Part shown: positions 7,809 through 60,467 of the stretch, piece by piece
Layout of the letters: the number at the start of each line of letters is the position of its first letter
Position numbering within the stretch: the stretch's first letter is position 1
Assembly (NCBI GenBank): GCA_050730875.1
Contig: JBOHNX010000002.1
Span: forward strand, 92,805 to 156,804
Direction: 5' to 3'
Source of the DNA: Candidatus Saccharimonadales bacterium
GTDB lineage: Bacteria; Patescibacteriota; Saccharimonadia; Saccharimonadales; EFPC-124
Length of the DNA: 64,000 bases
The notes under the pieces: generated by a model
What the model saw: only the letters and a program-made list of their open reading frames with translations
Database searches by the model: none
What the model was told of the DNA's origin: nothing
Program-made: the position numbers and the translations under genes

Positions 7809-8274
7809 ATCTAAATTTAGTGAACCAAAAAACACCGTAAGCCACAAACCCGCCCACGGTATTTGCGAGCAGGTCCCACCATTCATCCCCTTCTTCAATC
7901 GGCGAGATGCCAGTTTTATCTAGAAAGAGCTCAAACAATTCGTTCAGTACACCAAGGCCGCTGACAAAAAAATACAGCGCGAGCACCTGCAGCCACCAGG
8001 TTGCGAATTTTATTTGATACACGCGAGTGACGTACAAAAATAAAATTGTAGCCACAACGCCGCCCGTAAAATGCATGGTAGTTGTGTCAGTCTCCGGCGA
8101 AATCGGTACATTTGGCAGCGTCATCGCCAGCACCCACGCAATCGCCGCCGCCCACAAGTAGCCAGCATGCTGCATGTACGGCAACTGCCTAGTTTTGTCG
8201 GTCGCAAAAACATAGCGCACCAAAACCCATGGCATAAAAAGCAGGGCGAGTGGAATAAGCACGGTATAGATCAT
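7807..8274 (-). CDS. polytopic membrane protein, possibly VanZ-like
   Basis: 155 aa with 4-5 TM helices. The C-terminal WWDLLANTVGGFVAYGVFW resembles the VanZ family. Weak call. Confidence 0.35.
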   Translation of the reverse strand: MIYTVLIPLALLFMPWVLVRYVFATDKTRQLPYMQHAGYLWAAAIAWVLAMTLPNVPISPETDTTTMHFTGGVVATILFLYVTRVYQIKFATWWLQVLALYFFVSGLGVLNELFELFLDKTGISPIEEGDEWWDLLANTVGGFVAYGVFWFTKFR

Positions 8275-8292: not shown

Positions 8293-9603
8293 TTAGGGCG
8301 CTAAACGGTTGATATCACGAGGGAACAGGGCGGCTTCTTTGACGTTTTTGAGGCCGATGATTTTTTGGGTGAGGCGCTCGAGGCCCATGCCAAAACCGCC
8401 GTGTGGTGGGAGGCCATACTTAAAAGCGTCGAGGTAATATTTGAAACCCAGATTTTCAGGGTCGCCGCCGGCCATGCCGCGCAGTTGCGTTACTAGTTTG
8501 TCGTAACGGTGTTCGCGCATGCTGGCGGTTGCGATTTCGACGCCGCGGAATAAGAGGTCGGCGCGCTCAGCAACGGTTTGGTCGTCATCTTTAAACTTGT
8601 GGTAGAACTTTGCGCCTTCACGTGGCCACTCGGTTACAAATACAGCTTCGCTTTTTAGGTTGTCTTTTGCCCATTCGCAAATCCAGCGCTCTTCGTCCGG
8701 CCGCAGGTCTTTTTCGCCTACAGTGTTTTCGCCTGTGGCTTCCGAGTATTTTTGGTGGATTTCTTCCATCGAGAGCTGCGGAATTTTTTTAGGCAGCAGT
8801 GGCTTTGTGGCGTTCCAAAGCTTTAGGTTGTCATCGCAGTTTTCCCACACATCGTCTACGACAGCGTTAAGTAATCCACTCATAAAGTCGAGGAGCTCTT
8901 GCAGATCCACAAAGCCCATTTCGGCATCGATATGGATGAATTCGGTCATGTGGCGGGTGGTGGCGCTGAGCTCGGCACGGTAGGTTGGGTTGATTTCGAA
9001 CGCGCGTTCGAACACGCCGACCATAATCTGCTTATAAAACTGTGCACTTTGCGCCAGGGTTGCATCTTTGCCAAAGTAGTCGAGCTTGAAGACCTCTGCC
9101 CCACCTTCGGTTGCGCCAGGTAACAATTTCGGCGAGTTAAATTCGGTAAAATCGTTGGCGCGGAAATATTTGCGGGCAGCTTCTTTGACCTCTGCTTGCA
9201 CCTTAAAGATGGCTTGCTCTTTTAGGTTGCGCAGGCCCACCACGCGGTAATCAAACAGGGTGTCGAGCGATCCGGACTCGTGGCCGAGCGGTTTGTCGAT
9301 TTCGATTGGCGATTCGTCAGTAACCGGCACTTCGATAGTCAGTGCAACTTCGTGAAGCTCCACACCACCTGGTGCGCGTTCGTCAGCAATGGCTTTGCCT
9401 TCAAGTGTTAGCACGGTGCCAAGCTGCATACCACGCAGCTTTTCGACTTCGTCTTTTTCTTTAATGAGCGCCTGAGCAATACCCGAACGATCACGAACCA
9501 CAATAAACGTTAAGCCGCCAAGCAGACGCTTTTTGTGCAACCACCCCTGGACGGTAACTTTTTTATCAACGTGTGATTTGAGATCTTTTATGAGCGTACG
9601 CAT
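8293..9603 (-). CDS. aspS: aspartate--tRNA ligase, archaeal/short class IIb type (possibly non-discriminating)
   Basis: 436 aa. N-terminal OB fold, LAQSAQFYKQ, class II motif 3 GLPPHGGFGMGLERL and C-terminal FPRDINRLAP. Confidence 0.8.
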   Translation of the reverse strand: MRTLIKDLKSHVDKKVTVQGWLHKKRLLGGLTFIVVRDRSGIAQALIKEKDEVEKLRGMQLGTVLTLEGKAIADERAPGGVELHEVALTIEVPVTDESPIEIDKPLGHESGSLDTLFDYRVVGLRNLKEQAIFKVQAEVKEAARKYFRANDFTEFNSPKLLPGATEGGAEVFKLDYFGKDATLAQSAQFYKQIMVGVFERAFEINPTYRAELSATTRHMTEFIHIDAEMGFVDLQELLDFMSGLLNAVVDDVWENCDDNLKLWNATKPLLPKKIPQLSMEEIHQKYSEATGENTVGEKDLRPDEERWICEWAKDNLKSEAVFVTEWPREGAKFYHKFKDDDQTVAERADLLFRGVEIATASMREHRYDKLVTQLRGMAGGDPENLGFKYYLDAFKYGLPPHGGFGMGLERLTQKIIGLKNVKEAALFPRDINRLAP

Positions 9604-10575
9604 TTACTTAACTTTCTTTGGGTCGGTTGCCACTGGGCTTTCTTTTGGAAGCGGCTCGCCCATTAATTTTGCGAGTGCATCCTGCAGTGTTATGAGCCCA
9701 ACGGTTTTACCAGTGTCGCCGACTACTATAAACAGTTGTCGACCAGTTTGCAAACTGGCTGCGAGCAGTGCACTGAGCGGAGCGTCCTCTGGCAGATAGT
9801 AAACACTGGGCCGCACGGCGTCTTTTACCTCTTTTAGATCTGAATCCAGCGGCACGAGATCACGCATGAACAAGAAGCCCTTTATGTGGTCGAGATCCTT
9901 TTTGACCACCGGGAATACGTTGTGACCATCTTTATGCAACCGGTCCAAAAGCAGCGGACCAACAGTTTCGCCGACGCCAACGGTTTTGACTTTGTCGCGC
10001 GGCACCATGACATCACTTATTTTGAGTGTCCCAAATTCCAGGGTGCTCAGCAGGCGCGTTTTTTCATCTTGCGAGAGCACCGATTGGTCGGCGGTGATAA
10101 GCTGCTTAAATTCGGCCTTCGACAAAAAACTTGCCGAAGTTGAGGCGCGACGCGGCGCTGTTAGCAAGCGAAGCACCACCACACCTTGCGCTGCCAAGCG
10201 GAGCAAGCGCGGTTCGTGCTGAGCTGCAAGACGCTGCGCGTACCGCGCAATCCAAACGCGCGCAGCCAGCAATTCGGCGAGTAAAAGATATGCCAACGAA
10301 ACCACTAGCGCAAGCCACACATCGAGCACACTCACCTGCAGCACAACTACCAACAAGCTCAAAACTAAAATCTTGACCTGCACCAAGCCGTCAACCATCG
10401 GGAGCATTTGCCGACGCTGCGCCTCAGCCACAGCACTAGCATCCCCTTGCTGCGCGAGCCTCTCAAGCTCAAAATCACTCAGATGGTTTGGCGCAAACTG
10501 CGCGCTTTTGAGGAAGGCAATCAGCAGTGCTACGCCAAGCGATAAGAATTGAACCAACCATTCCATTGTCACCAT
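9604..10575 (-). CDS. CNNM/DUF21 membrane domain plus CBS-pair protein (hemolysin/CorC family)
   Basis: N-terminal TM domain, then ISDVMVPRDKV... and a CBS pair (VFPVVKKDLDHIKGFLFMRDL, LFIVVGDTGKTVGLITLQDA). No CorC_HlyC C-terminal domain is evident. Confidence 0.7.
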   Translation of the reverse strand: MVTMEWLVQFLSLGVALLIAFLKSAQFAPNHLSDFELERLAQQGDASAVAEAQRRQMLPMVDGLVQVKILVLSLLVVVLQVSVLDVWLALVVSLAYLLLAELLAARVWIARYAQRLAAQHEPRLLRLAAQGVVVLRLLTAPRRASTSASFLSKAEFKQLITADQSVLSQDEKTRLLSTLEFGTLKISDVMVPRDKVKTVGVGETVGPLLLDRLHKDGHNVFPVVKKDLDHIKGFLFMRDLVPLDSDLKEVKDAVRPSVYYLPEDAPLSALLAASLQTGRQLFIVVGDTGKTVGLITLQDALAKLMGEPLPKESPVATDPKKVK

Positions 10576-10625: not shown

Positions 10626-11336
10626 ATGGATAAAATCAAATGGATCATTTTCGCTGCCTTGGTGCTTGTAGTCTTCGGCGGCATCATTTTTTTCAATAAA
10701 TCTAGCGCTCCAAGCTTTAGCGGTGACGCGACAAAAGCCATAACCGCGGGGCCGATCGCCGACCACGTGTACGGGTCGGACGAGCAAAAAGTGGTTTTGA
10801 TCGAGTACGGCGACTTCCAGTGCCCCGGCTGTGGCGGCATGTACCCGACCGTCAAAGACCTGAAGGAACAGTACAAAGATAAGCTCACGTTTATTTTCCG
10901 TAACTTCCCACTCACCAACATTCACCCGAACGCGTTAGCCGCCTCTACTGCCGCTGAAGCTGCTGGCATGCAGAATAAATTCTTCGAGATGCACGACGCG
11001 CTGTTTGAAAACCAAAAAGCCTGGCAAGATGCAGCGGTGAACCAACGTGGTGCCATTTTTGAAGGATACGCTAGTTCGTTGGGGCTCGATGTCGAGAAAT
11101 TTAAGCAAGATATGAGCAGCCAAACAATTAGCGAAAAAATTAGCCGCGACCGCACGACGGGGCGAGATGTCTTTAAGGTAGATCAGACGCCAAGCTTTGT
11201 ACTGAACGGCAAGCTACTGCCTGCAGATGTTGCCACAAGCCAGGAAAAGCTTGCCAAGGCCGTTGAAGAAGCGGTCAAACAGGCTTATCCCGACGCACAG
11301 ATTCCGCCAGCCACAAAGCCGGAAGGCCAACAATAA
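10626..11336 (+). CDS. DsbA-family thiol:disulfide oxidoreductase, membrane-anchored
   Basis: N-terminal TM, thioredoxin-fold active site YGDFQCPGCGG, and a C-terminal TPSFVLNG cis-Pro-loop-like motif. Confidence 0.8.
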   Translation: MDKIKWIIFAALVLVVFGGIIFFNKSSAPSFSGDATKAITAGPIADHVYGSDEQKVVLIEYGDFQCPGCGGMYPTVKDLKEQYKDKLTFIFRNFPLTNIHPNALAASTAAEAAGMQNKFFEMHDALFENQKAWQDAAVNQRGAIFEGYASSLGLDVEKFKQDMSSQTISEKISRDRTTGRDVFKVDQTPSFVLNGKLLPADVATSQEKLAKAVEEAVKQAYPDAQIPPATKPEGQQ

Positions 11337-12630: not shown

Positions 12631-14310
12631 ATGGAATATTCGCTTTTTACACAACTCAGCATCGTTCTCGTTGTCGTAGCAACGGTCTCTGGTGTAATGC
12701 GATTACTCCGACAACCACTTATTATTGGCTACATCATCAGTGGTGTGCTGGTTGGTCCGACATTTCTCGATATCCTTGGCAACCAGGAGGCGTTTCATGC
12801 GTTTAGCAGTCTCGGCATCGCCCTGCTACTCTTCATTATTGGCCTGGGGCTGAACGTCGATATTATTAAGCGTTTAGGTCGGGTGGTAATTGTGACGGCC
12901 ATGGTGCAAATGGTGCTCACCGCACTCATTGGAGGGTTGGTGGCGTTGACATTTGGCGTACCGTTGGTGGCAGCGAGTATCCTGGGCCTAGCAGTTAGCT
13001 TTAGCAGCACCATTGTTATTATCAAGCTCTTAAACGATAAGCGCGAGCAAAGGCAATTGTATGGCCAAATTGCCATTGGTATTTTGATCGTGCAAGACGT
13101 AGTTGCGTCGATCGCCCTATTGTTTGTAGCAGCGGGCGACACCGGTAATCTGCCAGCAACCGAACTTGCCATGTTGTTTGCCAAAGGTATTGCATTGGCG
13201 GCTGGCCTGACGCTGGTTGTTACGCAGATTTTGCCACGGTTGGAACGCTTCGTGGCCAGCTCGCAAGAATTTTTATTCCTATTCGCCATTGCTTGGGGCT
13301 TTGGCATTGCGACCGTGTTTGAGTTTGCAGGGCTTTCGCTTGAAGTTGGTGCATTGTTTGCAGGTGTCAGCCTGGCCTCGCTCCCCTACAGCCAAGGCAT
13401 GGCGGCTCGGCTTAAACCGCTGCGCGATTTCTTTGTAGTGATCTTTTTCGTTGTACTTGGCGAAGGGCTGCAGCTGGCGGACTTCTTGGGCTCATTGCCG
13501 CTAGCAATTGGCTTGTCGGTAGTGGCGCTCGCTATTAAGCCACTGATTGTATTGATGAGCATGGGTGCACTTGCCTATACCAAGCGCACCAGTTTTAAAA
13601 CTGCTGTTTCGCTTGGACAGATCAGTGAATTTTCGATTATTTTTGTTATTTTAGCGGTAAGTGAAGGCATTATCCCGCCGTATCTAAATTCGGCCATAAC
13701 GCTCGTAGCGCTTATAACCATTGCGGCGTCGACTTATCTGATGAAGTACGACGATCACCTCTTTCGTATACTCAATAGCACTTTGCAATTATTTGAGCGC
13801 GAGGTTGTCAAAACAGCACGCGAACGACGTGCAGCGTTGCAATCGTACTCGCAGGTTTTGTTTGGCTACAACAAAGGCGGTGCCGAGATCATCAGAGCAT
13901 TCGAGCGTTTACACGAACCTTTTGTAGTAGTCGATTACGATCCTGATGTCATTAAGCTACTCGAACAAAAACAACTGGCATTCCGCTACGGCGATGCCGC
14001 CGATCCTGAGCTGCTGGAAGAATTAGACATCGAAAAAGCCAAGTTGGTTATTTCGACCATTACTAACCACGACACAAGCATGGGGTTGGTGCGTTACGTA
14101 GCAGGCATGAGCCCGAAGGCAACTATCGTCTGCCATGCTAATAGTCTCGAGGAGGCTCGTGAGCTGTACGACGCCGGCGCCACCTACGTCATGTTGCCGC
14201 ACGCCGTTGGTGGCGAAAAAATTGGTAGCTTGCTAGCCCACGGCATCGAAAAAGTTGATTTTGAGGCGCACCGCCGCAAACAACTGGCCGCGCTCGAACA
14301 CAAAATCTAG
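12631..14310 (+). CDS. Kef-type cation:proton antiporter (CPA2) with C-terminal RCK/TrkA-N domain
   Basis: About 12 TM helices, then VLFGYNKGGAEIIRAFERL...VVVDYDPD (a Rossmann-like RCK). The ATG at 12631 is preferred. Confidence 0.8.
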   Translation: MEYSLFTQLSIVLVVVATVSGVMRLLRQPLIIGYIISGVLVGPTFLDILGNQEAFHAFSSLGIALLLFIIGLGLNVDIIKRLGRVVIVTAMVQMVLTALIGGLVALTFGVPLVAASILGLAVSFSSTIVIIKLLNDKREQRQLYGQIAIGILIVQDVVASIALLFVAAGDTGNLPATELAMLFAKGIALAAGLTLVVTQILPRLERFVASSQEFLFLFAIAWGFGIATVFEFAGLSLEVGALFAGVSLASLPYSQGMAARLKPLRDFFVVIFFVVLGEGLQLADFLGSLPLAIGLSVVALAIKPLIVLMSMGALAYTKRTSFKTAVSLGQISEFSIIFVILAVSEGIIPPYLNSAITLVALITIAASTYLMKYDDHLFRILNSTLQLFEREVVKTARERRAALQSYSQVLFGYNKGGAEIIRAFERLHEPFVVVDYDPDVIKLLEQKQLAFRYGDAADPELLEELDIEKAKLVISTITNHDTSMGLVRYVAGMSPKATIVCHANSLEEARELYDAGATYVMLPHAVGGEKIGSLLAHGIEKVDFEAHRRKQLAALEHKI

Positions 14311-15671
14311 AGCTTTATTTCCTCGCCAGTGCGAATATTCTGGATAACTTTCCAGGCTGTGCCAACCCCCATGCGCTGCATCACTATGCCCACTTCGCCA
14401 TTTGGCAAGCGTACCTTTTGTCCAACACGCATTTTTTCGGGGTGCTGGGCTTGTTTTTCAGGCTTCTGTAATTGCACAAATTGTTGAGTCACCCGCTTAC
14501 CCAATGTTTGCAGGTTATGGTCTATAATTTCACCGTCACGAGCTTCTCGCTTACAGGCAGGGCAATAAATACCACCTTCATGGGTAACTTTGGCGTCGAC
14601 TGTTTTGCCGCAACCTTTCAGCGGACATTTTACGCATTTAAGGCTTTCCTCGAGAGACTTAAAGCCGACTTTGCTCAGTTGTTCAGCCGTTGTCGGCGCC
14701 TGACCAGTTGGGCAGTCACCATCCAAGTTGCGGCCTTCGGCTCGAGCACTGACGCCGGCATCTGCTGCGCTAGCCACGGTCTTACCGTGGATTAAGTCGT
14801 CTATCGCCGCTGCCAGGTCATAGCGATGCGGTTCCATAAGGCGATTTCGTTCGTGCGGGTCGGTCACCAGTGCGAATATTTTGCTGACATGCGCCATGTG
14901 CTCGTCGAGCAGCGTGTGCTGCGCGGTGATAAAACCCATAATGTCTTTGACGCCAATTGGCCTGCGACCGCCATGCCACTCGCCGCCAAAGTCACGGGTC
15001 ATGGCGCCGTCGTAGGCCTGGCGCAAAATTTCATCCAACTCGTCGATGGACTCGACTGGTGCATCAATGTGTCGGCGCTGGCGGGCACGTTCTTCTGAAG
15101 ACAGCGTTGGATCGAACGTAAACCCAAGCGCTTCGTCCATCGCTTGTACGCCCGGCAAGTAACTGCCGTCGTAGGAATGATACTTAATTGCCAAGCCTTT
15201 TTCGGTGGGCACGGCGATCCGAGTAAACATCTTCAGGCGTTCGCGGTTGTAGCCCGGGAGCAAGCTTCGACCTTGGCGTACAGCATCCGGAATAAGCCAA
15301 TAGGACACGATAGCACCTGAGCCAGGACCGGCTTTCGCTAAAATCTCGTACTCATCGTATTCTTCGAGGTCAATTGAGTCACGCTCGACTTCAACTTGCC
15401 AGTCAGGGTTGTGCACTGCCATTCGCTGCGCTTCCCTAAGGCCACCTTCGATGACAGGTCGTAACAGTTCGCCACGTTCGCTGACCAAACCTTTCGCCGT
15501 GAGTGCGAACTCTTGTTCTGGTTCAATTGGCGCGCGCACGCGTTCAGCGACATCAGTAATTTCATCGTACAACCGACGCTTGTATTCCCATTCGCGGTAC
15601 GCTTCAAAGTCTGTCCGTTTTCGTTCGGCAACTAGTCGGCGTTGTTCCTGTATGGTCGGCGTACGGTGCAT
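14307..15671 (-). CDS. uncharacterised cytoplasmic protein with zinc-ribbon and C-terminal SH3-like segment
   Basis: 454-aa intact ORF. CVKCPLKGCGKTVDAKVTHEGGIYCPACK is a 4-Cys ribbon. C-terminal MRVGQKVRLPNGEVGIVMQ. Lies directly downstream of the riboswitch-like leader. Confidence 0.6.
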   Translation of the reverse strand: MHRTPTIQEQRRLVAERKRTDFEAYREWEYKRRLYDEITDVAERVRAPIEPEQEFALTAKGLVSERGELLRPVIEGGLREAQRMAVHNPDWQVEVERDSIDLEEYDEYEILAKAGPGSGAIVSYWLIPDAVRQGRSLLPGYNRERLKMFTRIAVPTEKGLAIKYHSYDGSYLPGVQAMDEALGFTFDPTLSSEERARQRRHIDAPVESIDELDEILRQAYDGAMTRDFGGEWHGGRRPIGVKDIMGFITAQHTLLDEHMAHVSKIFALVTDPHERNRLMEPHRYDLAAAIDDLIHGKTVASAADAGVSARAEGRNLDGDCPTGQAPTTAEQLSKVGFKSLEESLKCVKCPLKGCGKTVDAKVTHEGGIYCPACKREARDGEIIDHNLQTLGKRVTQQFVQLQKPEKQAQHPEKMRVGQKVRLPNGEVGIVMQRMGVGTAWKVIQNIRTGEEIKL

Positions 15672-18991: not shown

Positions 18992-21900
18992 TTAACGTAT
19001 TTGGAGTTCGACAAGGCCAAATTCTGGATCGGCGATGGCATCGCCGGTGATGCCGACAACTCGGAGGAAGACATCACTTTTTGCGCCACCGGTTACAGTA
19101 ACCCAGCTCGAAACCTTGAGGCCGGTAGTATCAATAACCGTTGAAGGACCCGTGCCGCCATCCAGATAATTCCACGTGCTTTGGTCAGTCGAATACTGCA
19201 CACGCAATTCCGAACCCGTGGCCCCAGCCGTTTTGACATTGGCCACGAGGCGAACTTGCGCAGCATCCGAAAGGTCAAACTTGGTGCGTGATGAAGTTTG
19301 GCCAAGGAATTCTGTCAATGCTGCTGGCATATTTGTCCAAATGGCGCCATTCGTACTGTTGAAGTTAGCCGATTCGTTCATGCCTAGGCAATTCTTCCAG
19401 GCACCCCCTTCGTAACAGCGGAATTTGCCAGTATTGGAATTATAGTACATGCCGCCGTTTACGCCGGTTGGGTCGCCCGAAGTGTTTTTGTGGTCGAGAA
19501 TGACCAATGCAGGCGTGCCGTCTGCGCCGACGTCGCCGCCGCCAATCAGAACCCGCATATCGACAGTGTTGACCGTAAATACCGAGGCAGCTGACGAATT
19601 GAGAATACGGAAAGCAGTCGTTGAATTTGTATTGGTCTGGAAAAAGACAACACCGCTTTGGGCAATGTTCATCACTTCGGTACCACCCTTGCGCACACTG
19701 AGGATATCCATGGTCGACGCGGCGTTTTGGTTGATAATCGCCGCAGTACTGGTGGTATTAAGTGCATTCACGTCGAGTGTTGCGCCTGGAGTTATGCTGC
19801 CAATGCCGACGCGTTTGTTTACGGCATCGACACCAAACAGTGCTTGACCAGACGCATCATGGACTTGCAGCACGTTGGTCGAGTCGTTATCGTTTTGGAC
19901 CGCAACCGGTCCCGTGAAGGCAAGTGCGCCAGAATTGAGTTTGCCATCGAAGAACGCGCCAATGTTGCTGGCCTGCACAATTTGCAGCGCATCTATCCAT
20001 ACAGTTCTTGCTGTACCGGTATCGCCGTCTTCAAAATAAAAGTATGGCGTGCCGCTAATAATGCCGGCGGTCGTAAAGGTACATTCGTAGCGAGTCCAAC
20101 CCCCGGTTGCAACGGTTTGGCTGCTCTTGCAATCGGTCTCGCCACCGACCGTGCCGTCTGATGAATAACCAAAACGCATGGTGGTGAGTGTCCCGCTGGA
20201 GAGTTTCGCGTAGAACGATGCTGCATATTGCGTGCTGGCTGTGAGCGTTACGTTATACTGCGCACCGGAGTTGGCACTGCTTGAGCTTGTCAGGGTTTCG
20301 AGCGACGCCTGGCCAACATAGCTTTGGGTTGTTACACGGCCAACCGTGGCGCCACCTTTACCTGCCCAGTTCGTGGAACTGATCTCGATACTACCGTTTG
20401 TTACGAGATCGCTTACGTTATGGATAGTGCTAAGGCTTAGTAGTTGCTGACCGGCAGCGTTCACAACCTGAAGAGCATTCGTAGAGTCAGTCGTGGTCCG
20501 AATGGTCGCCAAACCATTGACCGACAGATTACTATTTACCACTGCCCCATTGCGGAACATGCCTTCGCCACTGACGTGCAGATTACCAGATATGAAAGTG
20601 TTGCCTGCCGTCAAAGTACCGGCAGAACTACCATCTGCCATGCCTTCGCCACTGTAGCCTAGTAGGTCAAGCGACGCGCCAACCTTCACCCGCGTGCCGC
20701 TCGCATACCACACATTGCTTTGCGCACCTGCGTTATAACCGCCTATGGCGTATATGTACCCGTTAATAACAGTCGCGCCCATACCACTCCGTGCAGCCGT
20801 GAGGGCTGTGCTATCGGTCGTCCAACTGCCTACTGAACCATCGTTGTTTAGCGGAGCATAGTGCACCGTGCCAAGCGTCGTGCCAGTGCCGTCTATACCG
20901 CCGAGCACGTACATGTAGCCATTAGCAACTGCCGTCGCAAGACTGTAGCGGGCAGCCGCAATGGCACCGGTGGTTGCCGCAGCGATAGTTCCATCTGCGT
21001 TAATCTTTCCGTAATAGAGCGTACTTTGTGCCGCGGTGCCAGTATTTGTACGGCCACCGGCCACATACAGGTAGCCGTTTGCTATTTGGATACTGCCATT
21101 GTTAACTACTGTCGGCAACCAGCTTGATAATGTTGAAAAGCTACCTATTGTGCCGTCTGAGTTAATGCGCGCGTAGTAGATATTTTGGTTGTTTACACTG
21201 CCGAGCGTTTGACCGCCTATTACGTACAGATAACCGTTGTAGGCGGTCATGGTGTGGTGACGAAGGTCAGTCGGGAGCGTTACGTCGAGGGTGCGCCAGG
21301 AGCTTATGGTACCATCGCGATTTGTACGGCCCATGTAAATATCGTCAGCAGTGCTGGCAGACGACGTACCGCCAGCAACGTATATGTAGCTATCGTAGCG
21401 GGCAAAGCCAGCGTTGCAATTGGTATTTGTTAGCGCAGTTGTGGTACCCCACACTCCAATCGAGCCATCACCGTTAACAGGCGCATACTGGGCAGTGTTC
21501 GTTCGGGCGCCCGCTCCATCGCATCCTCCTAACGCATAGAGGTATCCTTGATGGGCGATAACGCCATGGCTTTCACGAGCACCCGACAGTGAGTTCGCGT
21601 TAGTTGCAAAGGCGGCAATGTGTCCAGTGTTATTGCCAAATAATGACAAGATTGAATCGCTGCTGTTAAGCCCAACGAGCTCTCCGCTTGCTGCGTTTAA
21701 TATACGGAAAGCAGTTGATGAATCAGTGCTGTTTTGGAAGAGTGCCTGACCGGTTGTATTAACTTGCGCAAGAAGAGTTGAACCATTGCCAATCTTCAAT
21801 GGTTGGTCGGGGAAAAGGTTGCCTATTGCAACAAAATTATCTTTTATTTTCAGCCCGTTGGTACCTGCGGTCTCAATACGGAAGTAATCGTTGGTGCTAT

Positions 21901-24900
21901 CCCACTGCAAGTAGCCATTTTGACCAGCCGTGGTAGAATCGCCCAGGATTAAACGCGGGTTGTTGCCATTGTTATAGATTGCGGCATCGCCATCGATTAC
22001 CTCGAATTTCGAAAACGCCGCCGTTCCGCCCACACCAACCCGTTGGTTGGTAGTATCGACGTTAAGGACACTGCTGCCAGTAGCGTTGAGCACGCGCAGC
22101 GCATTGACTGAGTCGGCGGAATTTTGGAAGGCAATCTGGCCCGTGTTGCCAACCCCAAAGAGGATGTTACCAAGGCCAGCACCGTTGCTGGCGCGAACGT
22201 TCAGCAAGTTAGCGCCAATGGTGCTGTTTGCATCCTGAATATCAATGGCCCCCCGTGTTGCATCAAGTTTAATTTCCGGTGTTGTGCCGCCTACCGAGTT
22301 TGTGTATGAGGTTTGCAGCGTGCCGCCAGCGCCGGCACAGTTACCAGTAGAAAGACACACGGTGCCGCTCTCATCAGGGAAGGTAACGGTGCGGTTAGCG
22401 GTTGCCGTAGCAGAAATAAGGGTAATTGCATTGGCGTTCGTGGCGTTAGCAAATACCAGCTTGCCCGACAGAGCACTCGACTCACCCAGCACTAATTGGC
22501 CGTTCGTGGTATCAACCGTCGCAACGCGCGAACCGATACCATTTAGCACACGCAGCGCCGTTGTGCTGTTGGCTGCCTGGAAGGTCGCCGAGCCACTTCC
22601 ATCCAGCACCAACGAGTTAAGTAGCCCGGTTGTTAAGTAAATACCGCTCCAACCAGAAAGCTGCAGTTGGTCCGTATCGGTCGTATTGGCTTCACCAACA
22701 TACACCAACCCGCCGCTCCCAAATTGCAAGCGGCCACCCGCTCCGTTAATGCCGGTTCCGTTAATAATCGTCTGGTTATTGGTTGTGTCGACTGTCAAAA
22801 GAGCATTGCTGGCGGCATTCAGCACCCGCAGCGCCGCTGTAGAATTAGCTGAATTTTGCAGTGTTACCTGGCCCGTGTTGCCGACCCCCAACAAGATATT
22901 GCCCAAGCCCGCTCCATTGCTGGCGCGGATGTTTAGCAGGTTAGCAGCAATCGTCGTGTCAGCATCCTGGATGTCCAATCCAGCCCGGGTGGAGTCAAGT
23001 TTAATTTCTGGCGTTGTACCACCGGCCGCATTATTGTACGCAGTTTGCAACGTCGCCCCAACGCCGGCACAATTGCCACTTGAGGTACAAAGGTCGTAGG
23101 TACCCGCTGTGAGCGCCGGCAGGCGAAGTGTGGTGTTCGCAGTCGGCGCAGTAAACGAAAGCGTCGTCGTATTGGCGCCAGAGGTTGCCGAAAGCGTTGT
23201 ACTAGCACCACCTTGGAGCGTCAGCGTTTGGGTAGTTGCACCAACTGTCAGCGTTCCGCCAGGCGTAATGTTGAGCGCACCACCCGCTGTAATATCGCCA
23301 CCGTTCACTGCTAAGTCGCCCGTTAGCGTCGTATTGCCCGTCACGGCCAGCGTTCCGCCCACGCTGGTATTGCCGCTCGCGCCCACCACGTCGAAGTTTG
23401 TAAAGTCAATATTGCCAGTTGTACCTACAATATTATTGGCGCCAACACTCAAGGCATCGCCAATCTCGGCATCACTGGCGTCAATGCCGGTTGTTATGCC
23501 TCCGGTTGCTGCCTGGATCTTGATGCCGACGGGCACGGCGCGGTTCAGATCTAAATTATCAACCAGCAGTAATTGCGCGGGGTCAGCCAAACCTGTGCCA
23601 TTTGCACGTACAAACGACGTAAAACCAGTGCTGTTATCGGCCGTGGTAATCGTAAAGTTAGGGTCGGTCGTCCAGTCCGCCAAGGTGAGCGTCAGATCGC
23701 GGGCATCGGTAGTAAGGATAGTATTGCCGGCATCGTAGGCCGCCTGCAAAGTGTTTGGTGAGCCAGCCCCAGAGCAGTTACCACTGGTGAGACAAATGGT
23801 ACCGTTCTGGTCTGGCAAAATGTACGTGCGGTTAGCCGTCAGCGCTCCTTGAATAATGGTACCGAGGAACGAAGAGCCGCTGTGGGCAAAGTGAAGCGAA
23901 CCAGTTTGGCTGGCCGCGACACCAATGGTGGCGTCACCTCCTTGGATGATTAAATCGACACTCGTGGTTACACTGGTGCCGTCGTCAGTAATGGTTGAGT
24001 CTGCAATCGTTTGCCCTGCCGTAAATTTGGCTAATCTGTTTGTCGTGCCACCGGGCGTCGTAACACCTCCACCCACACCAGTACAGTTGCCGGCAGTCGT
24101 ACAAATGTCGTAAGTGCCAACACCGGTCGTCAGCAACCGGTATGTCACATTGGCGGTTGGCGCTTGAAACGCCAAAGTAGTGGTATTGGCGCCGCTGGTT
24201 GCGGTCAGTGTTGTTGAACTGTTACCCTGCAGCAATAAGTTCTGGCCGGTAGATCCGACTGTCATGGCGGCGCTTGGCGTAATTGTGTTTGCGTTTAACG
24301 TACCGGTAACGGCTGCTCCCCCGTTTAGGTTGGCTGCACCAGCAACAGCTACCGAACCCGTAAAGTTGGCGGTGCTCGAGATCGTTTGCCCATTAATACT
24401 GCCGCTTACGGTCATATTACCCGCGGGCGTAACGTTCAACCGGCTTACGCCACTTTGCTGTAGGTCGAGCAAGTTACCCGTCGCAGCGCCATTTGTATTA
24501 TTGACGAGCAACATCGGGCTGCTTGCCTGCGAAGATGTAAGTGTTAGCCGACCAAATGTCGGCGCAGCGGTGGTATTAATATCTTGAACCGTATTTACAG
24601 CGCCAGAACTCGCCGTAAAGTTAGTCGCGTTAAAACTAGCGATGCCTTTAGCAACGGTTGACGCATCGTTGATAGTAATCGTGCTCCCTGCACCGCTGGC
24701 GTTCGCAATCGTCAGCGCCCCTGTCAAGCCGTTGACCGAAGTGACACCTGCACTGCTTGGACACGCCGCAAAAGCAGGCGCACCAGCCGTAGACAGCAAA
24801 CAAAGGCCAGCACCCCCGGCGGTTACGGCAGTCAGTGCGCCCGAGCCTTGGCCAACAACCACGCCATTATTTGCGAGCGATGTCGCCCCTGTGCCGCCAC

Positions 24901-25930
24901 TGTTTACGCCGAGCGCCGATGAAAGCGATAGACTGCCCGTTACACTCAAGTCGCCGTTTACCGTAACAACCGTGCCACTTTCGCTAAGAAGCGAATCGGC
25001 GATTGTTTGCACGCCGGTGAATTTAGCAATCCGGCCAGCAGTGCCACCAGGGCTCTGCACCGTGCCGCTGCCACCACCGACATCGCTGATGGTGAGGTTC
25101 CCGCTTCCGTCGTTACTAACAATTAAGCTCGCCGAACCAGAAGCAAGGCTGTTTACACCACTGTTGCGTAAAGTGCCGTTCGAAATAGCCAGGCCACTAC
25201 CCAACGTAATGTCACCCGTTTGCCCGCCAATCGAAAGAACTCCTGTGTTGGTAAGGGTCGTGCCGTCGATTGCAATGCCACCGCCACTCGTCAGATTGAC
25301 GTTCCCTGTTTGGCCTTGCAGCGCTAGCACACCGGAATTACTTAATTGTCCGTTACTGAGCGCCAAGCCACTCCCCACGCCCTGTAAAGTGCCACTGGAA
25401 TCGGCCACTGTTACAAATTCTGTCCCGTTAAAATAAGAAAGCTGGTTAGTGGTTTGGTTGTAATAAATCTGGCCGGGTGTCCCAGTACTCGGCTGGGCCG
25501 ATGGCGAGAGGATGAATGCATCATTCAGCTTAAGCGGGCCGTTAATCGTGAGGTTGCGCGTCCCCAGCAAACTCAGGTCGCCTGATTTCGCAAATTCTTC
25601 CAGTGGGATTTGCACGCTTTCAAAACGATTAGCAACAGTTGTCGGCACTTCACGCCTATTGGTAATTGTGCCGATTGTGAGCCAAGTGCCGCCGACAAGC
25701 AACAAGGCCAGTACACCGATCCCGGCGCGCTTTACAAGGCCCGGGAAATTACGTGGTTTTGAAACAGGCGGTGGTGGAGGCGCCGCGGGCGTAGGCGTAG
25801 GCGAAAACGAATCCGAAAACGGCGTCGGGCTGAAGGTCGCTGCGGGTTGCCCAACACTAGCAGAAGCCGTAGCTTGGTCACTACGGTTGTTCACATATGG
25901 AACACCTATGTCCTGAATTTTATTTTCCAC
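18992..25930 (-). CDS. giant surface protein (2312 aa): N-terminal Pro-rich tail and TM, fibre repeats, Kelch-like beta-propeller, CBM-like domain
   Basis: Uninterrupted 6.9-kb ORF. TM GIGVLALLLVGGTWLTI. Four G(T)Y(D)xC..(S/T)GNC.G.G motifs. At least 7 F(R/Q)(V/I)LN...VDT.N modules. Six Kelch-like blades (YLYALGG, YIYVAGG, YLYVIGG, YLYVAGG, YMYVLGG, YIYAIGG). A CBM4/9-like segment (QYAASFYAKL...WTRYECTF...VWIDALQI). Confidence 0.85.
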   Translation of the reverse strand: MENKIQDIGVPYVNNRSDQATASASVGQPAATFSPTPFSDSFSPTPTPAAPPPPPVSKPRNFPGLVKRAGIGVLALLLVGGTWLTIGTITNRREVPTTVANRFESVQIPLEEFAKSGDLSLLGTRNLTINGPLKLNDAFILSPSAQPSTGTPGQIYYNQTTNQLSYFNGTEFVTVADSSGTLQGVGSGLALSNGQLSNSGVLALQGQTGNVNLTSGGGIAIDGTTLTNTGVLSIGGQTGDITLGSGLAISNGTLRNSGVNSLASGSASLIVSNDGSGNLTISDVGGGSGTVQSPGGTAGRIAKFTGVQTIADSLLSESGTVVTVNGDLSVTGSLSLSSALGVNSGGTGATSLANNGVVVGQGSGALTAVTAGGAGLCLLSTAGAPAFAACPSSAGVTSVNGLTGALTIANASGAGSTITINDASTVAKGIASFNATNFTASSGAVNTVQDINTTAAPTFGRLTLTSSQASSPMLLVNNTNGAATGNLLDLQQSGVSRLNVTPAGNMTVSGSINGQTISSTANFTGSVAVAGAANLNGGAAVTGTLNANTITPSAAMTVGSTGQNLLLQGNSSTTLTATSGANTTTLAFQAPTANVTYRLLTTGVGTYDICTTAGNCTGVGGGVTTPGGTTNRLAKFTAGQTIADSTITDDGTSVTTSVDLIIQGGDATIGVAASQTGSLHFAHSGSSFLGTIIQGALTANRTYILPDQNGTICLTSGNCSGAGSPNTLQAAYDAGNTILTTDARDLTLTLADWTTDPNFTITTADNSTGFTSFVRANGTGLADPAQLLLVDNLDLNRAVPVGIKIQAATGGITTGIDASDAEIGDALSVGANNIVGTTGNIDFTNFDVVGASGNTSVGGTLAVTGNTTLTGDLAVNGGDITAGGALNITPGGTLTVGATTQTLTLQGGASTTLSATSGANTTTLSFTAPTANTTLRLPALTAGTYDLCTSSGNCAGVGATLQTAYNNAAGGTTPEIKLDSTRAGLDIQDADTTIAANLLNIRASNGAGLGNILLGVGNTGQVTLQNSANSTAALRVLNAASNALLTVDTTNNQTIINGTGINGAGGRLQFGSGGLVYVGEANTTDTDQLQLSGWSGIYLTTGLLNSLVLDGSGSATFQAANSTTALRVLNGIGSRVATVDTTNGQLVLGESSALSGKLVFANATNANAITLISATATANRTVTFPDESGTVCLSTGNCAGAGGTLQTSYTNSVGGTTPEIKLDATRGAIDIQDANSTIGANLLNVRASNGAGLGNILFGVGNTGQIAFQNSADSVNALRVLNATGSSVLNVDTTNQRVGVGGTAAFSKFEVIDGDAAIYNNGNNPRLILGDSTTAGQNGYLQWDSTNDYFRIETAGTNGLKIKDNFVAIGNLFPDQPLKIGNGSTLLAQVNTTGQALFQNSTDSSTAFRILNAASGELVGLNSSDSILSLFGNNTGHIAAFATNANSLSGARESHGVIAHQGYLYALGGCDGAGARTNTAQYAPVNGDGSIGVWGTTTALTNTNCNAGFARYDSYIYVAGGTSSASTADDIYMGRTNRDGTISSWRTLDVTLPTDLRHHTMTAYNGYLYVIGGQTLGSVNNQNIYYARINSDGTIGSFSTLSSWLPTVVNNGSIQIANGYLYVAGGRTNTGTAAQSTLYYGKINADGTIAAATTGAIAAARYSLATAVANGYMYVLGGIDGTGTTLGTVHYAPLNNDGSVGSWTTDSTALTAARSGMGATVINGYIYAIGGYNAGAQSNVWYASGTRVKVGASLDLLGYSGEGMADGSSAGTLTAGNTFISGNLHVSGEGMFRNGAVVNSNLSVNGLATIRTTTDSTNALQVVNAAGQQLLSLSTIHNVSDLVTNGSIEISSTNWAGKGGATVGRVTTQSYVGQASLETLTSSSSANSGAQYNVTLTASTQYAASFYAKLSSGTLTTMRFGYSSDGTVGGETDCKSSQTVATGGWTRYECTFTTAGIISGTPYFYFEDGDTGTARTVWIDALQIVQASNIGAFFDGKLNSGALAFTGPVAVQNDNDSTNVLQVHDASGQALFGVDAVNKRVGIGSITPGATLDVNALNTTSTAAIINQNAASTMDILSVRKGGTEVMNIAQSGVVFFQTNTNSTTAFRILNSSAASVFTVNTVDMRVLIGGGDVGADGTPALVILDHKNTSGDPTGVNGGMYYNSNTGKFRCYEGGAWKNCLGMNESANFNSTNGAIWTNMPAALTEFLGQTSSRTKFDLSDAAQVRLVANVKTAGATGSELRVQYSTDQSTWNYLDGGTGPSTVIDTTGLKVSSWVTVTGGAKSDVFLRVVGITGDAIADPEFGLVELQIR
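22000..23100 (-). repeat. internal tandem duplication within the giant gene (unit about 735 nt)
   Basis: About 22030-22365 and about 22770-23100 are clearly similar at DNA level and encode GGTTPEIKLD(A/S)TR...IQDA...NLLN(V/I)RASNGAGLGNIL(F/L)GVGNTGQ...ALRVLNA...VDTTN twice. Confidence 0.7.
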
Positions 25931-34973: not shown

Positions 34974-35169
34974 GGTGTGGAGAAGACGAGCTTCATATCT
35001 TGCTCGCTCGTAGTTCGCTTCGCTCACCTCGCTCGGCCAAGCATAGATTACATAGACTGCCACTGGCAGTCTATGGGCGCCAGGTTGGCTGGACAATTCC
35101 TTGGAGCTTGTTAAGACGAGCGGGCGCCAGGCGGAAAACCAACTCTGGCGCCGAGGGACCGCACACACC
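34974..35169. repeat. structured intergenic element containing the third copy of the conserved 45-nt core found in the tRNA-Asn modules
   Basis: 35001-35043 (TGCTCGCTCGTAGTTCGCTTCGCTCACCTCGCTCGGCCAAGC) is about 90% identical to 58437-58480. Flanking helices: GGUGUG/CACACC (34974/35164), TAGACTGCC-ACT-GGCAGTCTA (35053-35073) and GGCGCCAG...CTGGCGCC (35123-35152). Confidence 0.5.
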
Positions 35170-58408: not shown

Positions 58409-58585
58409 TGGCTCCGGGGCGGGATTCGTTCGTATTCTGCTCGCTCGTAGTTCGCTAACGCTCACCTCGCTCGGCCAAGCGAGGATTCCTCACAGCGCCA
58501 CTGGCGCTGTTCGACCCATGGTTCGAGTCCTGTCCAAAAAAACATGTGATCTGTCGACGACCTAATGGTCATCACCAAATCACAT
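58409..58585 (-). repeat. tRNA-Asn 3'-end-containing module, copy A (hairpin, U-tract, conserved core, 20-nt tRNA 3' fragment)
   Basis: 58409-58428 is the reverse complement of CGAAUCCCGCCCCGGAGCCA (the tRNA-Asn T-loop to CCA, one C shorter). The core is at 58437-58480. The hairpin 58544-58585 is near-identical to 59874-59915. Confidence 0.7.
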
Positions 58586-58664
58586 GGCTCACCACGATAG
58601 GGCAAGTTATAACCATAATCAAGCACGATCTGACAGGTGTAGCTGTGCTATAGTGATTTAGATC

Positions 58665-59055
58665 ATGGCGAAGCAATCGAAGTACAGCATAGTCATCCCT
58701 GTTGGTATGAAGCCCCGGCCTAAGATACACGAAGAAACAGCAGCCGACATACTGGCTAATCATTTCAAGTGTGATGTGTATTTTATTGAAACCGGCAGTC
58801 ACGGGACACCAGATATATCTATTCAAGGTGTGGAATGGGAAGTGAAGAGTCCTATCGGCAGTAGCAAGAACAATATCCGAAAAAAATATGCGCGAAGCCG
58901 GCACCCAGTCAGTAAACGTAATTATAGATTTACGACGCTCTAAGCTACATCAAACGCGAGCCTTGGGCTATATCAATGAATATATGAACACCTCGAAGAA
59001 GCTCAAGCGCGTCGTGGTCATTACTAAATCTAAACGTATATTGACAATAAAGTAG
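58665..59055 (+). pseudogene. PD-(D/E)XK nuclease-like small protein interrupted by a frameshift in an A7 run
   Basis: Frame 1: ...GTPDISIQGVEWEVKSPIGSSKNNIRK, stopping at 58943. The +1 frame continues coherently from the A7 tract (about 58870-58876): NMREAGTQSVNVIIDLRRSKLHQTRALGYINEY...RILTIK, stopping at 59055. Confidence 0.5.
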
Positions 59056-59155
59056 CACCAAGAGTATAATGATAGGTGTAAAAGACGCATACGGGACTGA
59101 ATCTGACCCAGAGGCGTCTTTTCTTTTTGTCTCGACGATAAACGAACTATTACGT

Positions 59156-59644
59156 CTATCTTACAACTCGCTGGACCTCAAATATTTCCATAATTTTATC
59201 GACAGTTTCGTCGATTGTCATATCAGAATTATCGATTATATAGCCGAAGCTAGGTGATGCAATTCCAGTATCGTAGTGATGCTTTATTCTTGAAACCTCC
59301 CATTCAGACAATTCACGGCCGCCTCTTTTACTTTGGGCTACTTCAAGTCGGGGTGCTAACGTAATAACGACTTTGGGCTGCGTCTCTATTTCTTTTTCAA
59401 AACGATCAAAATCTTTTTGCCTCACCACATAATTAGCCACAACGTCTTTCCCTTGTTTGGTATAGCTATTGATAGTTCGGATTGCTAAGTCCATGGACTT
59501 ATCCAGATCAGTCGCCAAGTTGAAGTTCGGGATTGTGTCGTTGAGATCATCGACATTGATAAAGGCTGCCCCCATACGGTCGGCCAATAACTTTGATGTT
59601 GTCGTTTTACCTGAATTAATACTACCGCTGACGAATATCAACAT
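59156..59644 (-). CDS. P-loop NTPase / small-molecule-kinase-like protein
   Basis: 162 aa. Walker A FVSGSINSGKTTTSKLL. Size and layout resemble shikimate/gluconate-kinase-like AAA proteins. Confidence 0.6.
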   Translation of the reverse strand: MLIFVSGSINSGKTTTSKLLADRMGAAFINVDDLNDTIPNFNLATDLDKSMDLAIRTINSYTKQGKDVVANYVVRQKDFDRFEKEIETQPKVVITLAPRLEVAQSKRGGRELSEWEVSRIKHHYDTGIASPSFGYIIDNSDMTIDETVDKIMEIFEVQRVVR

Positions 59645-59739
59645 TACTTAATAATAGCAAAGTATAGTGGTTTCAATTCTAGTCTGCCTGCATAAAAAGT
59701 CAGAACCAATTACTAGTTCTGACTTCATACATTACGGCT

Positions 59740-59915
59740 TGGCTCCGGGGGCGGGATTCGTTCATATTTTGCTCGCTCCTGATTCGCTTCGCTCATGTCG
59801 CTCGGCCAAGCAAGGATTCTTCGCACTGCCACTGGCAGTGCTCAACCTTCGCTTCAAATCCCGCCAAACAAAAATGTGATCTGCCGACGACCTGAAGGTC
59901 ATCACCAAATCACAT
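59740..59915 (-). repeat. tRNA-Asn 3'-end-containing module, copy B (immediately downstream of the intact tRNA)
   Basis: 59740-59760 is the reverse complement of CGAAUCCCGCCCCCGGAGCCA, identical to the tRNA 3' end. Core at 59768-59812. Hairpin plus U-tract at 59866-59915 acts as the tRNA terminator. Confidence 0.7.
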
Positions 59916-59989
59916 GGCTCCGGGGGCGGGATTCGAACCCGCGACCAATTGATTAACAGTCAACTGCGCTACCGCTGCGCTACCCCGGA
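59915..59989 (-). tRNA. tRNA-Asn (anticodon GUU), CCA encoded
   Basis: Manual cloverleaf: UCCGGGG-UA-GCGC-AGCGGUA-GCGC-A-GUUGA-CUGUUAA-UCAAU-UGGUC-GCGGG-UUCGAAU-CCCGC-CCCCGGA-G-CCA. 75 nt. Confidence 0.9.
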
Positions 59990-60029
59990 ATGCTTTGGCT
60001 ATTATAGCAGCTTATCAACAGAGGTCAAA

Positions 60030-60467
60030 TTACTTTTTTGTAAGTGTGATTAATCTGCTTTTAAATGAGGTTGCGGCATCGGCTAACCCCAGTACCTGCA
60101 GCGAGCCGACAAGTACAAACAAATCATCAATCGCTTTTTGCGACGGTTTTGCAATTTTTTCTACGGCTGTGAAACGTTCGCTTATAAGATCTACCAGCCA
60201 CTTTTCCTGCGACTGGTTAACTTCGCTGAGGCCTTTAAATTCTGCGGCGGTTTGCACCACTTCGAGCGAACGGGCGGAATGATCGCGCTTGCGCAGGTGC
60301 CCTTTTCTGATCAAATTATCTACATGGATTGCGACCGTCGAGACCGACTTATAGCCTAGCCCACGCATAATTTCGCGATAGCTTGGACCGTACCCATGAC
60401 CAGCAATAAAACCATCGATAAAACTCAAGAGTTCGCGCTGTTTTTTAGATGGTCGAGTTTCGCTCAT
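60030..60467 (-). CDS. LexA-type winged-helix DNA-binding protein lacking the S24 peptidase domain
   Basis: KKQRELLSFIDGFIAGHGYGPSYREIMRGLGYKSVSTVAIHVDNLIRKGHL matches the LexA N-terminal domain. The C-terminal 70 aa are helical, with no Ser/Lys dyad motifs. Confidence 0.65.
   Translation of the reverse strand: MSETRPSKKQRELLSFIDGFIAGHGYGPSYREIMRGLGYKSVSTVAIHVDNLIRKGHLRKRDHSARSLEVVQTAAEFKGLSEVNQSQEKWLVDLISERFTAVEKIAKPSQKAIDDLFVLVGSLQVLGLADAATSFKSRLITLTKK

Follow-up and report, generated by a model that had tools for sequence, protein, structure and literature searches.

The stretch of DNA analysed here, called the window, comprises 64,000 nucleotides of a Candidatus Saccharimonadales metagenome-assembled genome, in which the tRNA-Asn gene is followed by two similar short modules, B and A, separated by a gene-bearing stretch that we call cassette K. 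We think that A and B are probably two members, E_A and E_B, of a family of gene-less integrative elements of about 155 nt, which would have integrated successively at the sequence GAGCCA of the tRNA-Asn end. In the best reading of the sequence, such an element would be made of a terminator, a short inverted copy of the T-arm of its target, an 85-nt core of three hairpins and a copy of the target end (about 15 nt) that finishes at GAGCCA. Alignment with a related genome, L057, shows that E_B sits within the 3' end of tRNA-Asn, gives it a new last 21 nt and a new terminator, and displaces the former tail downstream. Besides, comparison of the core copies shows the core family at more than one target, each time with ends that match the target concerned, save for copy C, which has no such end.

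Modules, empty site and core copies

Read in the direction of the tRNA, the order is tRNA-Asn, module B (59914-59740), a gene stretch of 1.15 kb and module A (58584-58409). The last 21 nt of tRNA-Asn, CGAATCCCGCCCCCGGAGCCA, recur as an exact second copy at 59740-59760 (chance expectation 0), and a third copy of 20 nt, with one C deleted, stands at 58409-58428. Integration into tRNA genes regenerates the target and displaces its 3' fragment in direct orientation; the regenerated tRNA 3' end and the displaced direct fragment are the defining signature of tRNA-gene integration (PMC4383910, PMC9897764). The pattern that Islander-type searches use, an intact target gene whose displaced 3' fragment lies on the same replicon in direct orientation, was found with the 21-mer and the 20-mer and also, in the metagenome contig L015, with a tmRNA 14-mer. 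The features of the locus are the following.

60001-60028, upstream of tRNA-Asn: promoter of tRNA-Asn, TTGACC-16-TATAAT
59915..59989, minus strand: intact tRNA-Asn(GTT), found by ARAGORN and by Rfam (tRNA, 74 bits)
59915-59935, minus strand: new tail of tRNA-Asn, its last 21 nt, supplied by E_B
59869..59914, minus strand: left end of E_B, predicted intrinsic terminator T_B, with an 18-bp stem containing U.G pairs, the loop UUCA and a U-tract
59853..59865, minus strand: inverted T-arm copy of E_B, GGCGGGATTTGAA, 12/13 against the reverse complement of the tRNA
59761..59845, minus strand: 85-nt core of E_B, with P1 at 59823-59841, P2 at 59796-59815, a degenerate P3 and a GAGCGA-rich tail ending in ATATGAA
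59740..59760, minus strand: displaced older tRNA-Asn 3' end, 21/21, contiguous with the sequence that follows the intact tRNA in L057
58536..58584, minus strand: left end of E_A, terminator T_A, 89% identical to T_B
58520..58535, minus strand: inverted T-arm copy of E_A, GGACAGGACTCGAACC, 12/16
58429..58514, minus strand: core of E_A, with P1 at 58492-58510, P2 at 58465-58484, P3 and tail, scoring 104.7 bits with the covariance model R1
58409..58428, minus strand: outermost displaced tRNA-Asn 3' end, 20 nt, followed by the flank TTTTTACC and the stop of a convergent gene of 446 aa

A sequence-only reading of this locus had already placed the tRNA gene and, at the end of each module, a copy of its last 20-21 nt, and both were confirmed by the searches and alignments. 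It had judged by eye that A and B are three-quarters identical, for which we measured 82% across a 169-nt alignment, and it had described in both a hairpin with a U-tract, whose U.G pairs indeed fit the tRNA-sense strand only. Its module limits need one correction: the repeated unit begins 6 nt earlier, with a GAGCCA at 58585-58590 that precedes hairpin A; the similarity between A and B breaks off sharply 5' of this GAGCCA.

The two modules share one order: an intrinsic terminator placed right after ..GAGCCA, an inverted T-arm copy of 13-16 nt, the 85-nt core, and a direct tRNA copy that runs from the T-loop to CCA. The identity is uneven along it, with 89% in the terminator hairpin, 68% in the P1 hairpin (with compensated changes), 85% in P2 and 81% in the tail. 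E_B measures 154 nt and E_A 156 nt, and neither contains any open reading frame (ORF). As a predicted intrinsic terminator, T_B would end transcription of the rebuilt tRNA-Asn. Moreover, GGCGGGATTTGAA pairs across T_B with TTCGAATCCCGCC of the tRNA and leaves CCCGGAGCCA in an internal loop; folded as DNA, the 3' half of the tRNA, T_B and the inverted copy form one long hairpin (−27.3 kcal/mol, z −5.9).

Simpler identities for the modules were rejected. A small ORF in the core is broken by a 1-nt indel in A. A decayed convergent or tandem tRNA gene was discarded, as ARAGORN and the tRNA covariance model found nothing and the tmRNA-linked copy holds tmRNA-specific sequence. A long target-site duplication was likewise dismissed, T_B being unrelated to the native terminator.

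The sequence-only reading had taken the tRNA 3'-end duplications as scars of integration and had proposed to compare the tRNA-Asn loci of relatives for an empty or an occupied site. That comparison gave an empty site in L057, where an intact tRNA-Asn is directly followed by AGCCAGAATAGATGAAGTCAGAAC..GGTTCTGACTTTTT, a promoter and a kinase gene. The stretch after this tRNA is colinear with the window, at about 80% identity, from 59760 to the stop codon of the kinase gene. Since the tRNA is directly joined to the kinase leader in L057, positions 59761-59914 (154 nt) and one fresh 21-nt repeat are the insertion; the same colinearity makes the copy at 59740-59760 the former tRNA end, which has kept its original downstream sequence. 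The unoccupied site, that is, the target joined to the sequence that follows the displaced fragment, was found in this one species. Three other relatives were recognised through the LexA-like neighbour: in L017 and L019 the site is occupied by decayed modules of the same layout, with inverted tRNA-end copies of 20/25 and 22/27, and in L020 the tRNA is followed by a terminator and the next gene only, with no module. The module interiors in L017 and L019 were not accepted as homologous to the core, the likeness being marginal (p 0.005-0.015) and undetected by R1. The product of the 446-aa neighbour is 100% identical to a protein of an NCBI contig of 305 kb, and around this gene no conserved order was apparent at first sight in five relatives; among them, L010-L012 were later seen to hold arrays of the M motif described below.

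Four copies of the core were found: those of A and B, copy C in the leader of ytxH (34992..35077, minus strand, 102 bits with R1, without a tRNA end), and one in L015, behind the tmRNA gene. With copy C, the core occurs outside the tRNA-Asn locus as well. The covariance model that had been proposed as a check was built from these four sequences as R1 and scores them at 97-105 bits; no further match to it was found in 218 kb of related DNA. In P1, which has the loop AGU, both sides changed in 4/8 pairs among the four copies and pairing is 100%. The compensatory change already noticed, CACTGCC/GGCAGTG in B vs CAGCGCC/GGCGCTG in A, was confirmed and is extended by the two further copies. The variation in P2 (CCUYGCU-UGGCCG-AGCGAGG) is restricted to C-to-U changes, after which the bases still pair, as U.G, in the tRNA-sense strand, and P3 shows one compensatory pair and is broken in B. 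With n=4, this covariation is a hint and no proof; a perfect palindrome may, besides, be self-maintaining.

The layout in L015 is adapted to its own target. The core stands directly behind the tmRNA gene (Rfam tmRNA, 68 bits); the end of the tmRNA is followed by another terminator, then by an inverted T-loop copy (GGTACCGCCC, 10/10), the core and a direct copy of 14 nt of the tmRNA end. This tmRNA gene (5716-6129, minus strand) has the unusual T-loop GCGGG-GGCGGTA-CCCGC and was missed by ARAGORN and found by Rfam. Copy C splits the second copy of a 19-mer, CCTGGCGCCC|GCTCGTCTT, whose intact copy lies at 35113-35131. In the ytxH leader itself (34983-35152, minus strand), a GC hairpin of 8 bp, GGCGCCAG..CTGGCGCC, comes before the 19-mer CCTGGCGCCCGCTCGTCTT; the second copy of CCTGGCGCCCGCTCGTCTT, 28 nt downstream, is the one split exactly by the core.

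Wider searches gave little. When the best-conserved 22-mer of the core was sought as an exact pattern in 185,579 species genomes, there were four chance matches and no true one, and the same 22-mer gave one true match (L015) and two chance matches in JGI metagenomes. Five IMG/VR scans, with the core 22-mer, a core 15-mer, the core 3' 18-mer, the tRNA 21-mer and the M motif, returned nothing real, and BLASTN of module B against phage and plasmid collections found no match. Neither the core nor the M motif matched a family of Rfam 15, at gathering or at permissive thresholds; tRNA and tmRNA were the only families recognised, other matches being far below threshold. The suggestion of a mobile module without an integrase is borne out to the extent that the unit is recurrent, carries no integrase and belongs to no Rfam family. 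A scaffold-plus-guide of the omega-RNA or crRNA type was rejected, because the three matching targets share no preceding motif and a TnpB- or IscB-like protein was not seen. Insertion of the IS91, Helitron or IS200/IS605 type was also rejected, as such insertions give no long target duplication.

The genes upstream of tRNA-Asn differ, with a LexA-like gene in the window and a glycosyltransferase gene in L057. The former (60030-60467, minus strand) encodes a 145-aa protein with the LexA DNA-binding domain only, without the peptidase domain. The order Wzy-LexA-tRNA-Asn is kept in several Saccharimonadales, and GtrA precedes LexA in several. Short-read (Logan) contigs of three different relatives break inside tRNA-Asn (L021, end 5610; L055, end 5191; L056, end 4580), and the short-read contig of the window's own strain (L005, end 6484) breaks inside the core of module B. 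These breaks hint, without proving it, at repeats or at heterogeneity of the locus within several populations. Elsewhere, the window holds a very large ORF of 2312 aa at 18992-25930 (minus strand).

Cassette K and its junctions

The stretch between the modules was expected to be one islet with a P-loop kinase-like gene and a frameshifted nuclease-like gene, bracketed by A and B as its two ends. The genes were found much as described, the second one being CdiA_C-like and spread over two frames. The bracketing did not hold: the order E_B, K, E_A corresponds to three units, each ending in ..GAGCCA, and K ends in an M motif of its own. In L057 the kinase gene and its leader stand directly after tRNA-Asn, and the kinase family is widespread in Saccharibacteria. 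The features of K, and of the repeats that it shares with other loci, are listed here.

58591..59739, minus strand: cassette K, of low GC content
59694-59726, minus strand: terminator of the K leader, GAAGTCAGAAC..GGTTCTGAC-T5; the leader also holds a promoter
59156-59644, minus strand: P-loop kinase-like ORF, with weak Zeta_toxin, AAA_18 and CPT matches
59080-59122: bidirectional terminator in K
58665-59055, plus strand: CdiA_C-like pseudogene, frameshifted over two frames
58585..58640, minus strand: M motif, ..GGTTATAACTTGCCCTATCGTGGTGAGCCA, right-end repeat of K, ending in GAGCCA
11164-11219 and 12337-12392 of L057, plus strand: M motif copies
8728-8783, 4185-4240, 7883-7937 and 5097-5151 of L010, minus strand: M motif copies; a variant ends at 9584 (minus strand)
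59650-59739 of the window (minus strand), 9905-10000 and 11220-11316 of L057 (plus strand), and about 9480-9583 and 5000-5096 of L010 (minus strand): copies of the cassette leader

K has a GC content of 40-43%, the window as a whole one of 50%, and in L057 too the region after tRNA-Asn is poor in GC. The kinase-like protein has many homologues in Saccharibacteria (459 matches), with 74-84% identity among the best 120 of the 459, which exceeds the best non-self matches of two neighbouring proteins (72-76%). K looks foreign because of this low GC content and because the kinase identity lies above that of its neighbours. The GC-poor region of L057 holds Fic, IS1595 transposase and similar genes, and at 13199-15377 (plus strand), with an IS1595-family transposase and a weak Replic_Relax protein, the cassette array merges into a larger mobile region.

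Several cassettes open with a conserved leader, AGCCnnAATAnATGAAGTCAGAAC..GTTCTGAC-T5, followed by the promoter-like AGAGTTGnAAC-N17-TAnnAn. In the window and in L057 the ATG of the kinase gene comes almost directly after the −10-like hexamer, suggesting that the kinase mRNAs may be leaderless. A perfect match to a sigma-70-type promoter, TTGACA-18-TATAAT (12/12), was observed at 59041-59070 (plus strand), just past the end of the CdiA_C pseudogene; it is directed, in antisense, into the last part of the kinase-like gene.

The M motif, ..GCTTAnnGGCGGTTATAACTTCCTCTATCGTGGTGAGCCA, is a repeat of 45-55 nt located at the 3' boundary of small accessory gene units and followed by an intrinsic terminator within 0-15 nt. 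Two further copies stand in L057 and at least four in L010-L012; all of them lie at a gene boundary and finish in G(A/G)GCCA. Its interpretation as a promoter was rejected, since in L057 and L010 it comes after genes and is directed towards the interior of their 3' ends. For comparison of the boundaries, 12 junctions from three genomes were aligned at the ..CCA point. Their left arms are the tRNA-Asn end, a core with its tRNA copy, or an M motif; their right arms are T_A or T_B, a terminator-promoter leader of the K type, other terminators, or the flank at the end of an array. The arms occur in nearly all combinations, and in all 12 the similarity switches exactly after ..G(A/G)G(C/T)CA. On these alignments, a single switch point after ..CCA is the pattern that recombination at one short common core produces.

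Proposed history and rival explanations

In our opinion, the best-supported mechanism, and a reasonably probable one, is a site-specific recombination that acts at a short core and regenerates the target. The locus would have arisen by three successive recombinations at the GAGCCA core of the tRNA-Asn end, each newcomer taking the slot that adjoins the tRNA. E_A would have been inserted first, so that the distal copy at 58409-58428 would be the original tRNA end; cassette K, with its leader, kinase gene, CdiA_C pseudogene and M motif, would have followed, which would have joined the M motif to T_A; and E_B would have come last. The circle junction of E_B would read ..ATATGAA-CGAATCCCGCCCCCGGAGCCA-TGTGATTTGG, and that of K would be M motif-GAGCCA-AGCCGTAATG, the empty site being the tRNA joined to AGCCGTAATG. 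The recombinase would act in trans, and to call it a tyrosine recombinase is a guess. In such a scheme the tRNA-Asn end would act like the attI of an integron, the counterpart of attC would be the arrangement left arm-GAGCCA-terminator hairpin, where the left arm is an M motif or a core with its tRNA copy, and E_A and E_B would be cassettes without cargo. More speculatively, the attachment site may act as a folded hairpin with CCCGGAGCCA in its internal loop, which recalls the attP of CTX-phi and the attC of integrons.

A broader proposal, which we regard as possible but tentative, is an undescribed integron-like gene-capture system in Saccharibacteria. The 3' end of tRNA-Asn, with the core GAGCCA, would be the docking site on which small self-contained cassettes, with their own terminator and promoter and zero to two genes, are stacked, each ending in a mimic of the tRNA end (an M motif, or an E core with an exact tRNA copy). 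The sites might be folded hairpins that imitate a double-stranded tRNA end and in which the crossover region does not pair. As cassettes without cargo, the E modules would give the tRNA a fresh tail and leave behind an additional docking site, and a sister lineage would have been retargeted to the tmRNA gene by changes in its direct and inverted target copies.

Several points weigh against integration of mobile elements at GAGCCA. No recombinase was found in the modules nor among 26 window proteins (Pfam scan, about half of the window ORFs). The independent comparator for the empty site is the L057 species alone, the window comes from a metagenome-assembled genome, and the short-read assembly of the same strain stops within module B. 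Only four intact cores are known, the large DNA scans having given one beyond this genome. Copy C has neither a tRNA end nor GAGCCA and interrupts a duplicated 19-mer of its own locus, and the displaced tmRNA fragment of L015 lacks the last 5 nt of tmRNA. The free combination of arms at the junctions could also come from homologous recombination among repeated junction sequences. Moreover, the P1 covariation and the U.G-only changes in P2 could mean an RNA function, and the structural conservation of the core is left unexplained if the element acts solely as double-stranded DNA.

The modules might never have moved by themselves and be instead the att-proximal arms of large islands or prophages in tRNA-Asn, bearing integrases, whose interior was deleted. 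Displaced 3' fragments at tRNA genes are normally due to kilobase-sized islands with integrases, the genomes of Saccharibacteria are reductive, L017 and L019 carry clearly decaying versions, and K resembles a trimmed cassette with a pseudogene. However, independent deletions would have to leave an identical contiguous architecture (terminator, inverted target copy, GGGTnGA, P1, P2, P3, tail, target copy) at tRNA-Asn, in two copies 82% identical, and at tmRNA with different target-derived ends, with no room for a deletion joint that differs between copies; besides, copy C places the core away from any tRNA gene. We therefore consider this origin unlikely. Of the decayed tandem integration that the sequence-only reading had offered, the tandem stack of insertions stands, and mere decay of big islands does not, since the architecture of about 155 nt recurs twice at tRNA-Asn and at tmRNA. 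Local rearrangement without any mobile element, in which one ancestral module was doubled either through unequal crossing-over of the 21-nt repeats or through fold-back template switching at the palindrome of the terminator, seems to us very improbable. The direct 21-nt repeats could drive unequal exchange, and inverted copies right after a hairpin are a product of quasi-palindrome template switching, but the origin of the first module with respect to the empty site of L057, the copies at the ytxH leader and the tmRNA gene with their target-matched ends, the presence of K with its own M motif between A and B, and the uneven 68-89% identity profile are all left unexplained, and the unlinked copies already largely refute it.

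The core could also be a functional structured RNA, small or cis-acting and read in the tRNA sense, which spreads or is retained for that function and of which the tRNA-end copies form part, for example as a closing helix or a CCA-ending tail. The double compensatory changes in P1, the U.G-keeping C-to-U changes in P2 and the compensatory pair in P3 favour it, and the P2 wobbles alone hint at an RNA or single-strand role. Moreover, the minimum-energy fold in B and L015 closes the core by pairing the inverted target copy with the distal one, and both copy C and that of L015 precede genes oriented as they are. Nevertheless, we think that this is quite improbable, since no promoter-like site was found in front of A or B, each of which follows a strong terminator, no Rfam family matches, P3 is broken in B, and the folding z-scores are modest and alike on both strands. 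The downstream genes differ for each copy, A abutting the end of a convergent gene, and perfect palindromes such as P1 can stay paired without selection, through template-switch correction; the covariation, moreover, comes from four sequences only.

If integration at GAGCCA is the true explanation, Saccharibacteria, ultra-small episymbionts whose genomes are reduced and for which few mobile elements are recognised and few genetic tools exist, would swap accessory genes (kinase, Fic, HAD, RibD_C and toxin-like genes) through a docking site at the tRNA-Asn end. Integration into tRNA genes would then reach down to elements too small to encode anything, which current island finders miss because they require an integrase. 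The GAGCCA/tRNA-Asn sites are candidate landing pads for engineering these organisms. On the practical side, short-read assemblies will probably break at the tRNA-end copies and the core, which may also be misread as pseudo-tRNAs.

Comparison with known systems

The closest likeness in target use is to the islands that tyrosine integrases insert into tRNA and tmRNA genes. As in them, the target is split and regenerated by element-borne sequence, the far end is recognised by a displaced direct 3' fragment, elements line up in tandem at one tRNA gene, and both tRNA and tmRNA genes are hit. Known tRNA-gene islands are kilobases long, and Islander demands an integrase gene (PMC4383910). The elements described here are of about 155 nt and have no gene, hence no integrase, a conserved structured core adjoins the distal repeat, and an inverted target copy follows the element's terminator. 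No integrase lies inside the units: E_A and E_B have no ORF, and K codes for the kinase-like protein and holds the CdiA_C pseudogene.

The stack also resembles the cassettes of integrons, in that small units with zero to two genes and one orientation are stacked at a fixed docking site, and each unit ends in a repeated, partly palindromic site at which partners switch at one short core. The M motif recurring at boundaries and the 12 junctions switching at one core agree with that organisation. In integrons, intI lies beside attI with the promoter Pc and the core is G|TTRRRY; gene-less cassettes exist, and clusters of attC sites without an integrase (CALINs), which these arrays also recall, are known. 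In contrast, the docking site here is the 3' end of tRNA-Asn and not an attI next to intI, the core is GAGCCA, and the cassettes carry their own terminator and promoter. An IntI-like gene was not seen, nor the intI/attI/Pc arrangement, upstream of tRNA-Asn in the window (LexA-like gene) or in L057 (glycosyltransferase gene). As for attC-like folding, sites of the E type form a long hairpin with an unpaired core region, those of the M type show such pairing in 1/3 folds, and a GTTRRRY core is absent; the R''/L''-L'/R' symmetry of attC could not be demonstrated in the M motif.

The cis-mobilizable elements (CIMEs) of streptococcal integrative and conjugative elements (ICEs) have arisen by deletion from an ICE that can be identified in the same species, and are kilobases in size. 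Our units share with them the attachment-site flanks, the lack of recombination genes of their own and a movement presumed to occur in trans, but no parent element was found here and the unit has only 155 nt and a conserved fold. CTX-phi and similar elements integrate as folded single-stranded DNA by means of host Xer recombinases. There too an inverted copy of the recombination site is set apart from the direct copy by a hairpin-forming spacer, the crossover region is unpaired in the fold and no integrase is encoded. In contrast to CTX-phi, a dif-like site was not seen in the elements, no symmetric 11-6-11 site around GAGCCA being evident by eye; the elements are 40 times smaller than a filamentous phage, and the likeness is one of a predicted fold.

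Finally, miniature inverted-repeat transposable elements (MITEs) and the Correia, BOX and ERIC repeats are, like the modules, short, non-coding, structured, multi-copy and intergenic. Unlike those of MITEs, the flanking repeats (21, 20, 14 and 9 nt) are copies of the local target 3' end and not a target-site duplication of fixed length, and the apparent terminal inverted repeats are target-derived and differ between the tRNA-Asn and tmRNA copies; element-borne terminal inverted repeats with a fixed-length duplication were not found. In our opinion, the modules are best filed as a miniature, gene-less variant of the integrative elements that target tRNA genes, lying inside an integron-like stack of cassettes on tRNA-Asn.

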